64,000 nt of DNA, taken from NCBI GenBank assembly GCA_947625705.1, contig CANQPG010000001.1, forward strand, positions 56,963 to 120,962, written 5' to 3'. Below the pieces are notes generated by a model. The model did no database searches and was not told the DNA's origin. It saw only the letters and a list, made by a program, of their open reading frames with translations. Both the position numbers and the translations under genes were made by a program. The DNA comes from an uncultured Peptococcaceae bacterium. GTDB lineage: Bacteria > Bacillota > Dehalobacteriia > UBA4068 > UBA4997. The number at the start of each line of letters is the position of its first letter. Position 1 is the first letter of the stretch. Positions 1 to 26,221 of this stretch are shown here, piece by piece.

Positions 1-170
1 TGCGGCAAATATCCTGACTTATGACTCAACCTCACAGAAACCTTCTCAGGCCGAAGCCCAATGGTATAACTTCTGTTCGTCGTCAAATACAGTAGAGTTT
101 GGACTGCGCCGGATTCGCACCGGCTTCCTTTTTAAGCAATACTGCACCGCAAACTTTCAATATTCAGTTA
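1..170 (-). promoter_or_regulatory. cobalamin (B12) riboswitch aptamer, 5' part; continues beyond the window start
   Basis: The minus-strand reading contains AAGGAAGCCGGTGCGAATCCGGCGCAGTCC, matching the GGTGnnAATCC..GCnGnCC core. The 3' segment AGTCAGGATATTTGCC resembles the B12 box rAGYCMGGAnaCCkGCC. It lies immediately downstream of a consensus promoter. The regulated gene is off-window. Confidence 0.5.
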
Positions 171-177
171 TGTGTTT

Positions 178-206
178 ATTATAACCGGACGATCGTGCTT
201 TGTCAA
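178..206 (-). promoter_or_regulatory. sigma-A type promoter, TTGACA-17nt-TATAAT, driving the riboswitch transcript
   Basis: Read on the minus strand: -35 TTGACA at 201-206, a 17-nt spacer, -10 TATAAT at 178-183. Confidence 0.55.
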
Positions 207-224
207 GAGAGCGCGCGGATTTTT

Positions 225-737
225 TTACGCCTCGCTGCCGTTAATATTAGGGCTGGGGGCTTCCGGCATCAATTCCTCGTTCATCACCTGCAAAACCTCG
301 GAGATGAATTTCAGCTGCTCGCCGGAAAAGCGCTGGTAAATGCGGCGCACCACGCGCGAAAGGTATGATGTGCTGAGGTTATAATACTTATAGTATTTTT
401 CCGTCACCACCAGATGATATTCGCGCTTGTCGTCAGCGGACTGCACCTTTTTGATGTAGCCTTTTTTCAGCAGGCTGTTCACCTTATACGCCGCGTTGGG
501 GGCAGAGATGTTGATGAAATTGGCAAACTCGTTCACCGTCGGCGAATGCAGCGCGTGGATCAGCTCCACGCAGAACACCTCCACCGTGGAAAGCGACGCC
601 TCGCGCTCCTGCATGATGGTGAACGCTTCCTGGTAAAAATGAATTTTGAACTTCTCGTAAACCGCAGCGAAGTTATCGTTCAACTCCCGGCAGACCGCGT
701 CCGCGCTTTCCTGCTCCTTTATTATATCCCGCTGCAT
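225..737 (-). CDS. fabT: MarR-family transcriptional regulator, FabT-like, at the 3' end of the fab cluster
   Basis: A MarR-type winged-helix protein of ~170 aa, co-oriented and adjacent to fabZ. The start was chosen at MQRDII (737), which has a GGGGGTG Shine-Dalgarno 8 nt upstream. The 764 start in the track lacks an RBS. Confidence 0.6.
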   Translation of the reverse strand: MQRDIIKEQESADAVCRELNDNFAAVYEKFKIHFYQEAFTIMQEREASLSTVEVFCVELIHALHSPTVNEFANFINISAPNAAYKVNSLLKKGYIKKVQSADDKREYHLVVTEKYYKYYNLSTSYLSRVVRRIYQRFSGEQLKFISEVLQVMNEELMPEAPSPNINGSEA

Positions 738-784
738 TTTTTGCACCCCCCGGCACAGCCCCAAACCTTTACCAAACCCTTTGC

Positions 785-1216
785 CTACTTATCCCCGATG
801 GCGAAAGAAAGCTCCGCCTCGGCCGCCGTTTTGCCGTCCACCGTGGCGATGGCCTTGCCCACACCGAGCGGCCCGCGGCGGCAGGTCAGCTCACAGTAAA
901 GCTCCAGCTTATCGCCCGGCTCCACCTGCTTTCTGAAACGCGCCTTTTTAATGCCGCCGAAGAAGACCAGCTTGCCCGCATTTTCCGCCTCGGTCAAAAT
1001 CGCCACCGCGCCAACCTGCGCCAGCGCCTCCAATATCAGCACGCCCGGCATCACATGATGGCCGGGGAAATGCCCCATAAACTGCATTTCGTTGGCCGAG
1101 ACGCACTTGACGCCCCGCGCCCATTTGCCCGGCTCAAAGTCCTCAATTCTATCCACCAGCAAAAAGGGATAGCGGTGCGGCAAGATCTGCTCGATCTGAT
1201 TGGAATTAAGCTGCAT
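785..1216 (-). CDS. fabZ: 3-hydroxyacyl-ACP dehydratase FabZ
   Basis: Hot-dog fold with the [19 protein letters not shown] motif. The internal start MQLNSNQ was chosen. The upstream part of the track ORF overlaps fabF. Confidence 0.9.
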
Positions 1217-4249: not shown

Positions 4250-5308
4250 TCAGCGCAGTTTGCCGCAAAGCTCATGTAAAAGTTCGTCAACGTGCAGCAT
4301 CTTTTTGACGCGCCCCACGTTGCTGCCGCAGAAGAACAAGCCCTGCTCCCAGTTGCCTTTGACCGCCTCGATCAGCGCCCGCGTTATGCAATAGGGCGTC
4401 TCCGCCGGGTTGCAGGTGGTGATGCAGTGGATACAATGCTCCGGCTTGATACGGCCAAGTTCTTTGATCCGCGCAAAAAGCGGGCTGTTCAGCGCCCGCC
4501 CCGGCATACCCACCGGGCTTTGCACGATCTGCACGTCCTCCGGTTTGGCCGCCAGCATGATTTCTTTGTAACGCTCGTCGGCGTCACATTCCGGTGTGGC
4601 GATAAACCGGGTGGCTATCTGCGCCCCCGCCGCGCCCGCTTCAATACAGGCCGCCACGTCATCGCCGCTGAACACGCCGCCCGCCGTAAAGATGGGTATC
4701 TTGCGGCAATATTTTTCCTCGAACGGTTTAAGTATGGCCTTAACCTCGGCCAGAATATGCAGCAGCGGCGAGGCTTTGCCGGAAATAAGCTCCGGCAGCT
4801 TAAATCCCAGATGACCGCCCGCCTCTGCGCCCTCGATGACCACAAAATCGGGCACGCGGCCGAAGCGCCGATCCCACATGCGGCAGATGGCGTGCGCCGC
4901 CTTGCCGCTGGAGACGATGGGGGCAAGCAAGGTATCGCCGTCGCCTGCCGCCGCCGGCAGATCAAGCGGCAGCCCCGCCCCGCAGATGACCGCGTCAGCG
5001 CCGGCTTCCGCCGCTGCCCGCACGGCCTCGTGATACTGGCTGGTGGCCACCATTACATTAACGCCCACCATGCCGCGCCCGCCCGCTATGCGCTTGGCCT
5101 TGGCAATTTCCGCCTTAAGCGCGCGGATATTGGCGGCCAGCGAATCATGCCAGAAATCCGGCTCGGCAAAGCCCGTGTTGGCGCTGCTGATGACGCCCAT
5201 TGCGCCGCAGGCCGCCACGCTGCCCGCCAGCCGCCCTAATGAGACGCCGACGCCCATGCCGCCCTGAATGATGGGCAGCTCTAATTTTCTTCCGCCGATA
5301 ATGGGCAT
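4250..5308 (-). CDS. nitronate-monooxygenase/FabK-family flavoprotein, second enoyl-ACP reductase II paralog
   Basis: TIM-barrel FMN protein with IIQGGMGVGVS and GADAVICGAG motifs. It is adjacent to, and co-oriented with, canonical fabK. Confidence 0.7.
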   Translation of the reverse strand: MPIIGGRKLELPIIQGGMGVGVSLGRLAGSVAACGAMGVISSANTGFAEPDFWHDSLAANIRALKAEIAKAKRIAGGRGMVGVNVMVATSQYHEAVRAAAEAGADAVICGAGLPLDLPAAAGDGDTLLAPIVSSGKAAHAICRMWDRRFGRVPDFVVIEGAEAGGHLGFKLPELISGKASPLLHILAEVKAILKPFEEKYCRKIPIFTAGGVFSGDDVAACIEAGAAGAQIATRFIATPECDADERYKEIMLAAKPEDVQIVQSPVGMPGRALNSPLFARIKELGRIKPEHCIHCITTCNPAETPYCITRALIEAVKGNWEQGLFFCGSNVGRVKKMLHVDELLHELCGKLR

Positions 5309-6249
5309 TACAATTCCTCCGCCAAACTGTTCAAATGCTGCAAAACGCCGTCCACGCCCGCCGCCAGTTCCGTGAAAATTTCCCGCAGGGGACGTATCTC
5401 ATGCAGCTGGCCGGCCACCTGCCCGGCCATCAGGCTGCCCATTTTCACGTCGCCCTCAAACACCGCGCGGCGCAGCGAGCCAAGGGTGTATTTCTCCAAT
5501 TCCAGCTTTTCGGCGCCGGCTTTTTCCAGCTTCAGATATTCGCGCGTCATGCCGTTTTTCAGCACCCGCGTCGGCGAACCGCCGATACGCCCCGTCACCA
5601 CGGTGCTGTTATCTTTCGCGTCCAGCACGGCCTGCTTATAGTTCGCGTGAATGGGACATTCCTCGCTCACCAGCAGGCACGTCCCCAGCTGCGCCCCGCA
5701 GGCGCCGAGGGCAAACGCCGCCGTAAGCTGCCGGCTGTCGGCAATGCCGCCCGCCGCGATCACCGGGATATCCACCGCGTCCACCACCTGGGGCACCAGC
5801 GCCATCGTCGTAAGCTCGCCCACATGGCCACCGGATTCGGTGCCCTCGGCGATAACCAGATCGGCGCCCTGCTGCTCCAGCCGGCGCGCCAGCGCTGCAC
5901 CGGAGACCACGGGGATCACCTTGACGCCTGCCGCTTTCCACATCGCCATATATTTGGCCGGGCTGCCCGCGCCGGTGGTGACGACCTTTACGCCCTCGCT
6001 GACCAGCAGCTCCGCCATCTTATCACATTCCGGGTTCATCAGCATTAAATTGACGCCGAACGGCTTATCCGTCAGCTCTTTGGCGCGTTTGATGTGCCGC
6101 TCCAAAGTTTCCGCGTCCATGCCGCCGCTGCCGATAACGCCCAGCGCCCCGGCATTGGAGGCCGCCGCCGCAAACTCGCCGGTGGCGATGTTGGCCATGC
6201 CGCCCTGAATGAAAGGAAATTCCAAACCCAAAATTTCCCGCAGAGTCAT
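5308..6249 (-). CDS. fabK: enoyl-ACP reductase II (FMN-dependent)
   Basis: Classic FabK sequence: FPFIQGGMANIAT..VIAEGTESGGHVG..IPVIAAGGIADSRQ. Confidence 0.88.
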   Translation of the reverse strand: MTLREILGLEFPFIQGGMANIATGEFAAAASNAGALGVIGSGGMDAETLERHIKRAKELTDKPFGVNLMLMNPECDKMAELLVSEGVKVVTTGAGSPAKYMAMWKAAGVKVIPVVSGAALARRLEQQGADLVIAEGTESGGHVGELTTMALVPQVVDAVDIPVIAAGGIADSRQLTAAFALGACGAQLGTCLLVSEECPIHANYKQAVLDAKDNSTVVTGRIGGSPTRVLKNGMTREYLKLEKAGAEKLELEKYTLGSLRRAVFEGDVKMGSLMAGQVAGQLHEIRPLREIFTELAAGVDGVLQHLNSLAEEL

Positions 6250-10879: not shown

Positions 10880-11620
10880 TCATTCCGCCAGCAGCCGCTC
10901 GGCCTGCGCCAGGCGCTCTTCCGTGCCGACGTCCAGCCACCAGCCGTAAAGCTTCTGATAGGAAAGCAGACCCGCCTGCAAAAACAGGCTGTTCAAATCG
11001 GTTATCTCCAGCTCGCCCCGGGCGGAGGGCGCCAGCTCCCGTATCAGCCCAAAGGCCGTGGGCGGATACAGATACAGCCCGATGACCGCCAGATCACTGA
11101 TAAACGACGGCGGCTTTTCCACCAGCGCGGATATCTGCTCGCCGGCCAGCACGGCCACGCCGTAATCCTCGGGGTTTGGCACGCGGACGAGGAAAATTTC
11201 TGCCTGGCTCGCGCCCTGCTCTGCCCGCGCCGCATAAGCCGCCACTGCCGCGCGGATATCCGCCTGAAACAGATTATCCACCAGCAGCAGCAGCACGTGC
11301 CGCCCCGCCGCAAAATCCTCGCAGAGCCCAAGGGCATGCGCGATACCCAGCGGTTCCTGCTGCACCACATAGGTGATATGCAGGCCAAAAGCGCGCCCGT
11401 CTGCCACGTGCGCCTCGATGATCGGGCGGTTGGACGGGTTCACCACCAACGCCACGTCGGAGAGACCCGCCGCCGCCAGCTTGGCAAGCGCATGGTCAAC
11501 CAGCGGCCGCCCCGCCGCCATAACCATCGGCTTGCCGCCCAGCTCGTTGGGATAGCCCAGACGGCTGCCCGCGCCCGCCGCCAGCACCACGCCGCAGAGC
11601 GCCCCGTTTTTCTCTTTCAT
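10880..11620 (-). CDS. sugar-phosphate nucleotidyltransferase (glucose-1-phosphate thymidylyltransferase-like)
   Basis: An N-terminal LAAGAGSRLG nucleotide-binding motif (GxGxRL). The start at MKEKNG has a GAGGAA Shine-Dalgarno. Confidence 0.6.
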   Translation of the reverse strand: MKEKNGALCGVVLAAGAGSRLGYPNELGGKPMVMAAGRPLVDHALAKLAAAGLSDVALVVNPSNRPIIEAHVADGRAFGLHITYVVQQEPLGIAHALGLCEDFAAGRHVLLLLVDNLFQADIRAAVAAYAARAEQGASQAEIFLVRVPNPEDYGVAVLAGEQISALVEKPPSFISDLAVIGLYLYPPTAFGLIRELAPSARGELEITDLNSLFLQAGLLSYQKLYGWWLDVGTEERLAQAERLLAE

Positions 11621-25854: not shown

Positions 25855-26221
25855 AATAAGCCGAGCCAAGCCTGTAAGCCGGGTTCTGTCGTGAACGGAC
25901 ATCTATCTGGTGCGGCTGTTGCCAGCCGCCTCCTGCGGCCCTTTTATGCAGGCAGGACGGGCAGCACTGTGCGCCTGCATTTGGCCTTGCTTCGGGTGGG
26001 GTTTACCTAGCCGGCCGGTCACCCGGCCGCTGGTGCGCTCTTACCGCACCGTTCCATCCTTGCCGGCGCTTGCGCGCTTAGGCGGTTTGTTTCTGTGGCA
26101 CTTTCCTTAAGATCACTCTCACCGGCCGTTAGCCGGCACCCTGCCCTGTGAAGCCCGGACTTTCCTCAGCGCGGGCCTTTTGGGTCTCCGCGCCGCGTCC
26201 GCTCAGCTTACTCGGCTTATA
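25855..26221 (-). ncRNA. rnpB: RNase P RNA, bacterial type A
   Basis: GAGGAAAGTCCGGGC, GGTAAGAGCGCACCAG, CAAGGCCAAAT and ACAGAACCCGGCTTA, in the expected order. P1 pairing links ATAAGCCGAG to CTCGGCTTAT. Confidence 0.9.

Follow-up and report, generated by a model that had tools for sequence, protein, structure and literature searches.

Riboswitches that control non-coding RNA are known from few cases, namely EutX/Rli55, AspocR and SreA/SreB. AspocR of Listeria is an antisense RNA controlled by a B12 riboswitch, and SreA and SreB are S-adenosylmethionine (SAM) riboswitches that act in trans; here, too, a riboswitch governs a non-coding output. In the case of EutX/Rli55, an RNA that is produced constitutively becomes shorter in the presence of adenosylcobalamin (AdoCbl) and so lacks its effector site (PMC5821096). 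Cobalamin riboswitches of the Cbl-I class are defined by a P2 module together with a large P6 extension and are selective for AdoCbl, and in all classes of cobalamin riboswitches loop L5 forms a kissing contact with loop L13 of the expression platform (PMC7367189). The Bc1 riboswitch of the Bacillus cereus group, which responds to cyclic di-GMP (c-di-GMP), carries two close rho-independent terminators in one long platform, the second of which masks ligand control (PMC11218506). In this study, we analysed a cobalamin riboswitch at the edge of a 64,000-nucleotide stretch of DNA (the window) from an uncultured Peptococcaceae bacterium (contig CANQPG010000001.1, positions 56,963 to 120,962). A first-pass annotation, made from the letters of the window, had described this riboswitch as truncated and had placed its regulated gene, probably a B12/cobalt transporter or a B12-independent isozyme, past coordinate 1. 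Our results bear out the riboswitch but point to a different kind of output: with a probability of about 0.6, positions 171..1 of the minus strand are the 5' part of an independent, strongly promoted, non-protein-coding unit that comprises the aptamer, an expression platform and a conserved tail.

The Rfam family RF00174 matched window positions 166..1 on the minus strand with a strong score of 84.2 bits (E = 1.3e-20; cmscan, Rfam 15), compared to a gathering score of 31.5 bits. Of the 189 model positions, the match spans 1-175; it carries a flag for truncation at its 3' end, and the window edge falls within the 3' strand of P1, in agreement with the annotated truncation. The complete aptamer is found at positions 804-983 of a 1,420-nt Logan contig (DRR848814; L001), where it scores 92.2 bits (E = 3.1e-23). 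This contig, which encodes the exact MarR-family protein found next to the riboswitch in the window, comes from the same species, has 2 mismatches to window 1-969 in 969 overlapping bases and reaches 451 nt past coordinate 1. Aptamers of relatives score between 64 and 98.6 bits. All sequences quoted in the annotation lie on the minus strand, GGTGCGAATCCGGCGCAGTCC at 121..101 and AGTCAGGATATTTGCC, the B12 box, at 19..4. Within the aptamer (1..166; all window coordinates of the element refer to the minus strand), the 5' strand of P1, UUUGCGG, occupies 147..153, and its partner CCGCAGG is made up of window 5..1 and two nucleotides past the edge. The RF00174 alignment places the P4 hairpin GCCGG-UGCGAAU-CCGGC and the start of P5/L5 (GCAGUCC...) at 101..121, and the B12 box AGUCAGGAUAUUUGCC, which runs from J6/3 into the 3' strands of P3 and P1, at 4..19, aligned to the model consensus AGCCAGGAGACCuGCC. 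The P4 loop GGUGNGAAUCC is present; this loop and the B12 box are nearly invariant in 17 homologues, whose L5 reads (U/C)CCAA(A/G/U)CUCU.

RNAalifold detected compensatory changes on both sides of 11 of the 42 predicted aptamer pairs in these 17 homologues, distributed over P1, P2, P4 and the P6 extension, so that the annotated riboswitch is supported by covariation as well as by its score. P1 is paired to 100% in 15 sequences (alignment A4) and contains two covarying pairs, with a G-C to A-U covariation in 7 of the 15. The Cbl-I features, a P2 loop-stem-loop between P1 and P3 and a large P6 extension (P7-P11), align to the model and fold with covariation. One relative (L005, 10568-10600) has an aptamer that lacks the P2 module and scores only 64 bits, and another (L093, 4740-4775) has an additional hairpin of about 35 nt inside the P6 extension. 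We regard the identity of the window-edge element as a cobalamin riboswitch as virtually certain, and its Cbl-I-type architecture suggests AdoCbl as the expected ligand. A scan of the whole 64 kb at the Rfam gathering thresholds returned nothing besides this riboswitch and a bacterial RNase P RNA of class A (25858-26214, minus strand, 274.6 bits). A terminator-like site on the plus strand at 108-124, GCCGGATTCGCACCGGC followed by a T-rich run, was dismissed as a scan artefact; it corresponds to the P4 hairpin and the A-rich J2/3 read on the opposite strand and recurs in every homologue.

The perfect consensus promoter assigned to this edge was recovered by a promoter scan as a 12/12 match at 206..178, with the -35 hexamer TTGACA at 201..206, which is invariant in all aligned homologues, and the -10 hexamer TATAAT at 178..183, separated by a 17-nt spacer. 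It is the sole promoter-like site in bases 1-1000, and we estimate the chance of an exact 12/12 promoter in 1 kb, counting both strands, at about 4e-4. The promoter is identical in 18 of the 19 homologous loci, the -10 hexamer of L087 being TACAAT. Transcription is predicted to start at A171, 7 nt past the -10 hexamer. The 5' leader AUAACUGAAUAUUGAAAG (154..171) forms one strand of the long-range helix P0, to which we return below.

Homologous loci were collected with both protein and nucleotide probes. With the MarR protein as query, species-representative genomes yielded 78 loci, the seven closest of which all have RF00174 directly after the MarR gene, while nhmmer with a profile of the conserved tail found the element absent from the approximately 70 further MarR loci (Lachnospiraceae, Oscillospiraceae and others). 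A search of metagenome contigs for the platform motif GTTGCTTTTGNNTTNAGGGTGGG contributed one true new member (L080) and four chance matches, and ten more members came from contigs encoding MarR homologues with 62-77% identity. Including the sister species Candidatus Avidehalobacter gallistercoris (L002), whose MarR protein is 88% identical, the collection comprises 19 loci with the element, from gut and rumen Peptococcaceae-like Clostridia, and the tail profile recovers all members at E-values of 1e-6 to 1e-43.

The upstream neighbour of the RNA in the window is a gene for a MarR-family regulator of 170 amino acids (225..737, minus strand; Pfam MarR, E = 1.2e-10), which closes a fabH-fabK-fabD-fabG-fabF-fabZ cluster and ends, with its stop codon, 18 nt short of the -35 hexamer of the riboswitch promoter. 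The annotation had called it the regulator of the fab cluster. The adjacency holds. The protein is only weakly similar to FabT (NF050133), its best NCBIfam match, which reaches 44.6 bits with a cut-off of 200; its role as a fab regulator is derived from gene context only. In the same cluster, two adjacent genes of the FabK/NMO type are found at 4253-6249 (minus strand), one with a strong FabK score (406.9 bits, cut-off 453) and the other with a weak one (104 bits). The MarR gene adjoins the riboswitch in 18 of the 19 loci. In the exception, L091, the element (approximately 6530-5930, minus strand) is found 3 kb from the MarR gene, on the other strand and convergent with a MatE gene, a placement which suggests that the unit can relocate as a whole. 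This copy also contains an insertion of about 130 nt with two direct repeats of ACTTTCCCCGCCGAGACAAA, between the hairpin T2 and the segment segA described in the following.

The expression platform that was expected beyond coordinate 1 is indeed found there in the same-species contig, and it is followed by further conserved RNA. In alignments A1 and A4, promoter, leader, aptamer, hairpin P13, hairpin Y, terminator T1, hairpin T2, segA, a pyrimidine tract and hairpin H2 follow each other in unbroken conserved order. In L001, P13, with the loop AGGGUG as the likely kissing partner of L5, occupies 974-1007, and hairpin Y 1007-1031. T1 (1042-1071) is an intrinsic terminator, ACGGCUC...GAGCCGU followed by seven U, and T2 (1074-1103) a terminator-like hairpin, CCCCACCCAG...CUGGGCGGGG followed by UUUU. 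The tail then comprises segA (1117-1133), about 147-163 nt past window coordinate 1, a pyrimidine-rich, G-poor tract (1142-1191) and H2 (1212-1241), GCCUCGCGG-UUCCCCG-CCGCGGGG followed by six U, with a UCCCC loop. In the lineage of the window, the U run makes H2 the final terminator as well; in most lineages, H2 is followed by a second UUCGGUUGUGU segment, a small hairpin and the final terminator. Just past the last terminator of L001 (1239-1256), TTTGCGG occurs twice, 11 nt apart; it is the same sequence as the 5' strand of P1, and its recurrence may be due to chance.

We specified a structure for this whole arrangement and evaluated it on alignment A4, where 94.7% of it was paired, compared to 40-50% when the partners were slid. 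The inner stem of P13 contains two covarying pairs and hairpin Y, whose loops vary between homologues, contains three, and T1 is paired to 98%. The invariant P13 loop AGGGUG can pair with CUCU or (U/C)CC of L5; as both loops are nearly invariant, covariation cannot probe this L5-L13 contact. In every homologue T2 forms a hairpin with a U run behind it, despite a sequence identity of 35-47% outside the sister species, and selection therefore acts on its structure. A similar picture emerged for H2, the stem of which differs in every lineage: single folds present an apical loop of the form YUCCCCA or UCCCC (CUCCCCA, AUCCCCA, UUCCCC, UCCCC) in 17 of 18 sequences. Applied to a MAFFT alignment of the tail, RNAalifold yielded only six pairs because the H2 stems share no sequence; it was single folding that resolved them. 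Covariation is seen in T2 and H2 as well. Small RNAs (sRNAs) with C-rich loops have been proposed to act on Shine-Dalgarno regions, and a C-rich apical loop combined with a U-rich strand by a terminator is typical of base-pairing sRNAs in Firmicutes.

The pyrimidine tract contains one to three copies of the motif AACUU(U)CUUU, which is absent in L003 and L087. Cold-shock proteins favour T/C-rich strands, CspB preferring TTCTTTT-like ones, and the tail motif AACUUCUUUU resembles this preference, so that binding of such a protein might provide a link to the cold-shock protein (csp) genes found near some copies; since half of the loci have no csp gene nearby, this idea stays only a lead. Rfam searches with the tails of L001, L088 and L091 at a permissive threshold returned only terminator-like noise.

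As a neutral yardstick for conservation, we used the four-fold degenerate sites of the neighbouring fabF gene, at which the window and the distant loci share 40-46% identity. Measured against the lineage of the window, the leader is 89-100% identical in 14 other aligned sequences, the aptamer 71-87%, T1 67-90% and segA 56-89%, with T2 at the 35-47% mentioned above and the pyrimidine tract at 36-53%, both outside the sister species. The leader is thus conserved more than the aptamer, which is unusual for a sequence upstream of P1. These values also bear on the idea that the element is a decaying relic whose regulated gene was lost. Such a history would be in line with the missing downstream open reading frame (ORF), but it is contradicted by aptamer, promoter, platform and tail being conserved far above neutral, with four-fold sites near saturation, and by the many compensatory changes that have been retained, which makes it scarcely credible.

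The strong conservation of the leader goes along with its pairing to segA. The resulting helix, P0, consists of 17 pairs with one internal mismatch, and segA is the best duplex partner of the leader downstream of the aptamer in eight of nine loci, at -14 to -18 kcal/mol, and in four further loci. Overall, duplex energies range from -14 to -20 kcal/mol, compared to -9 to -11 +/- 1.8 kcal/mol for shuffled sequences, and in alignment A4 91.5% of the P0 cells are paired, compared to 40-50% with the partner slid. By our count, segA varies at five of the eight positions that face a U or G, so that a transition there still leaves a wobble pair, and at about one of the ten where a transition would break the pair. 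In L003, L087 and L091 the internal mismatch is turned into an A-U pair, and L093 adds a C-G pair. In L005, about 100 nt are inserted between T2 and segA (10880-10980), so that insertions are evidently tolerated in the linker that P0 encloses. We consider it likely that the helix is real. As P0 spans both T1 and T2, its formation in cis needs read-through and implies a transcript that passes both terminators.

Could the leader instead be conserved as DNA, on behalf of the genes upstream? The element might serve the fab-MarR operon, either as a B12-responsive 3' end or terminator module or with its leader DNA as a MarR operator, and this would account for the MarR gene being retained next to it in 18 of 19 loci while the downstream genes vary, for the 18-nt spacing in the lineage of the window, which leaves no terminator in between, and for the leader exceeding the aptamer in conservation. 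However, in L094 and L095 the MarR gene is separated from the promoter of the RNA by hairpins followed by T-rich stretches, which on inspection resemble terminators, and in L091 the element lies 3 kb away on the opposite strand, beside MatE. The leader is, in our reading, a weak palindrome matching at five of nine half-site positions, and the substitutions in segA fit pairing within an RNA made from this strand; in DNA, the conserved G-U pairs would not match, which argues for RNA pairing rather than for a repeated protein-binding site. Nor are we aware of any connection between B12 and type II fatty-acid synthesis. We therefore consider a role in the fab-MarR operon improbable.

Turning to the other side of the element, the regulated gene predicted by the annotation did not materialize. 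No conserved same-strand ORF or peptide follows the riboswitch in any of the 19 loci, although a cis-acting leader would call for a same-strand ORF in its own transcription unit. In L001 and L002, about 270 nt without an ORF extend past the aptamer, with three same-strand terminator-like hairpins inside, and are followed by a separate promoter, TTGACA-17-TATACT with a TG element, which in L002 drives a csp gene for a 71-amino-acid protein. The 19 loci present at least six different downstream contexts, among them a csp gene preceded by a terminator and its own promoter; an SLH-type protein some distance away, likewise with its own promoter (TTGACA-17-TATAAT); a purH-like gene in convergent orientation (L004, L005, L077); two small ORFs, also convergent (L006, L007); convergent MatE (L091); and several others. 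ORFs in the tail vary in frame, length and boundaries, and resemble one another only through the low-complexity Phe/Leu stretches into which the U-rich tract translates. A coding-potential check found no conserved encoded peptide in the tail, and promoter scans of three loci revealed no conserved tail or antisense promoter on either strand. Given these varied contexts and dissimilar tail ORFs, the predicted regulated gene is not a conserved feature, and the element very probably has no conserved cis-regulated gene at all.

The csp genes deserve a closer look in this context, since the element could be an ordinary cis-acting leader, with read-through into the next same-strand gene, csp in the lineage of the window, making that gene B12-dependent. 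A csp gene does follow on the same strand in about 9 of the 19 loci (L001/L002, L085/86, L088, L089, L090, L092). It is, however, separated from the riboswitch by the three terminator-like hairpins and the near-consensus TG-containing promoter, and its own leader falls just under the threshold of the cspA thermoregulator family. The other ten loci have no csp or a convergent next gene, and the tail is conserved regardless of the gene that follows, so that we judge B12 control of a downstream gene in cis to be of small probability. The csp genes in L001 (1278-1420), L002 (11053-11404) and L088 (3567-3916) have their own near-consensus promoter and a leader of more than 100 nt; the L088 locus scores 74.5 bits with the cspA thermoregulator RF01766, just below the cut-off of 78.

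Where the next gene is convergent, as with the purH-like gene in L004, L005 and L077, the small ORF pair in L006 and L007 and MatE in L091, the read-through RNA might also act as an antisense RNA or by transcriptional interference against that gene, as AspocR does against pocR in Listeria. Yet a strong terminator ends the tail ahead of the convergent gene, the convergent genes differ between lineages, and in the lineage of the window the next gene is co-directional, which together leave such a function very improbable. The small ORF pair itself, of 82 and 72 amino acids (L006, 11121-11584; L007, 11149-11612; both minus strand), is toxin-antitoxin-like in appearance and sits between the last terminator of the RNA and the purH-like gene.

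We thus favour an independent non-coding unit, for which the following mode of operation can be envisaged. With B12 bound, the L5-L13 kissing loop would keep P13 closed and T1 would form, yielding a short RNA of about 270-300 nt. Without B12, GGGUGGG of L13/P13 would be free to pair with YUCACCU of the T1 5' arm and loop, thereby weakening T1 and allowing some polymerases to read through. Both GGGUGGG and YUCACCU are invariant, including two YUCACCU bases that lie in the T1 loop, beyond the constraint imposed by a terminator itself. A general antiterminator formed by the P1 3' strand and the T1 5' arm was also considered and not adopted, as in our reading it is convincing in only some lineages. 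The read-through product would be a long RNA, of about 440 nt in the lineage of the window and as much as about 700 nt in relatives, in which segA would pair with the first 17-18 nt to form P0, burying the 5' end for stabilization or as an RNase III site. The tail would expose its pyrimidine-rich strand and the C-rich apical loop and could act in trans, the proposed partners being G-rich or Shine-Dalgarno-like RNA, the G-rich L13 of its own or other riboswitches, or an RNA-binding protein. The type of ligand, the switching logic, read-through at T1/T2 and trans activity are all deduced from sequence features, and we would put a B12-gated trans-acting RNA at slightly under even odds.

The tandem terminators also permit a simpler interpretation, in which the short terminated RNA is the functional product, either as an abundant B12 buffer or sponge, or as a decoy that shows a Shine-Dalgarno-like L13 in a B12-dependent manner; T1 and T2 would then constitute an efficient constitutive stop and the tail a separate entity. 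The perfect consensus promoter in nearly all loci, the conservation of the tandem terminators everywhere and the precedent of Bc1, where a dual terminator masks ligand control (PMC11218506), are all compatible with this interpretation. But P0 ties the leader to a segment past T2, with wobble-compatible substitutions that are hard to explain unless both are parts of one RNA, no tail promoter was found in the three loci scanned, and the tail always travels with the riboswitch, even to the different genomic site of L091. On this evidence, a functional short RNA with a separate tail appears unlikely.

Several observations nevertheless weigh against the independent unit and its trans-acting tail. 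The family is restricted to one uncultured clade, with only about ten independent lineages. P0 is without any double-sided compensatory change, because the leader hardly varies; its energy is no better than that of shuffles in L094 and L095, and segA is mutated in L004, where positions 10968-10976 read CATTCTTTTAG instead of the CATTCGGTTAG found in the nearly identical locus L077 (8742-8750). The L004 version breaks P0, and may reflect either a genuine mutation or a fault in the assembly. The pyrimidine tract is no better conserved in sequence than neutral sites, with only its composition and the AACUU(U)CUUU motif recurring. Within the 64-kb window, we found no complement of AACUUCUUU or segA that could represent a target, and a search for ribosome-binding sites of the UGGGGA type gave nothing interpretable. 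Start site, isoforms and read-through are each predicted, and T2, positioned straight after T1, looks like a constitutive terminator that could block synthesis of the tail.

Compared to the Cbl-I riboswitches of Thermoanaerobacter tengcongensis and of B. subtilis yvrC, the latter with a P13-P14 terminator platform, our element has the same B12 box, P2 module and large P6 extension, a P13 so positioned that it could contact L5, and a terminator after the platform. It differs in having no regulated ORF, in a nearly invariant leader that pairs with a segment 300-400 nt downstream, and in a second terminator-like hairpin followed by a conserved tail. The two close terminators recall Bc1; however, Bc1 precedes protein-coding genes, whereas here a conserved RNA tail past T2 pairs back to the 5' end. 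Unlike the antisense RNA AspocR, the tail is not consistently antisense to any gene, and in contrast to SreA/SreB there is no downstream mRNA. With the C-rich or UCCC-motif sRNAs of Firmicutes, such as the Rsa RNAs of S. aureus (PMC2790875) and RsaE/RoxS, it shares an unpaired C-rich motif (YUCCCCA here) in an apical loop beside a terminator. No homology to them was detected in Rfam scans, and the motif is here located on a riboswitch-led RNA.

The closest parallel is provided by EutX of Enterococcus faecalis and Rli55 of Listeria monocytogenes, which present the same order of parts: their own promoter, an AdoCbl-type aptamer, a terminator and, on the read-through isoform, further RNA with the effector, without an ORF; in EutX/Rli55 the promoter is constitutive and the ligand stabilizes the terminator. 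For our element, this correspondence is one of sequence. EutX, like this element, could sit anywhere in the genome, and a review of ethanolamine utilization has considered that EutX-like RNAs might exist outside eut loci in Clostridium genomes (PMC5821096). The present element is not in a eut locus, and its tail, composed of a hairpin with a C-rich loop, a pyrimidine tract and a 5'-3' closing helix, has no sequence similarity to EutX/Rli55, as judged from the Rfam scans. Inspection of alignments and folds by eye revealed no ANTAR/EutV site (tandem hairpins with hexaloops carrying A1 and G4), a dedicated ANTAR model not having been run; the P13 loop AGGGUG alone has A at position 1 and G at position 4, with no tandem partner seen. 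Literature searches did not turn up a prior description of the riboswitch-tail element.

As a riboswitch, then, the element is a plain member of RF00174, and as a unit it appears to have the architecture of a riboswitch-gated sRNA, without the ANTAR-site feature. For annotation, the lesson is that a high-scoring cobalamin riboswitch need not mean a downstream B12 gene. Beyond that, the element is a conserved, testable candidate with a different effector module and an unusual helix through which its 5' end would reach over a long range to a segment past two terminators. By analogy, the most plausible reading is that of an EutX/Rli55-like AdoCbl-gated small RNA with a different effector tail. 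We tentatively propose, as a conjecture in which we have limited confidence, that it represents a new B12-gated RNA family in gut Peptococcaceae-like Clostridia, in which AdoCbl would set the choice between a stop at T1/T2 and an effector tail, whose YUCCCCA loop and pyrimidine tract would either target the G-rich ribosome-binding sites of a 'B12-sparing' regulon by base pairing or mimic L5 on the L13 loops of cobalamin riboswitches. A function in trans would extend B12 control to the post-transcriptional level in a corrinoid-dependent, uncultured gut lineage, and the element would then be the base-pairing counterpart to the protein-sequestering EutX and Rli55.

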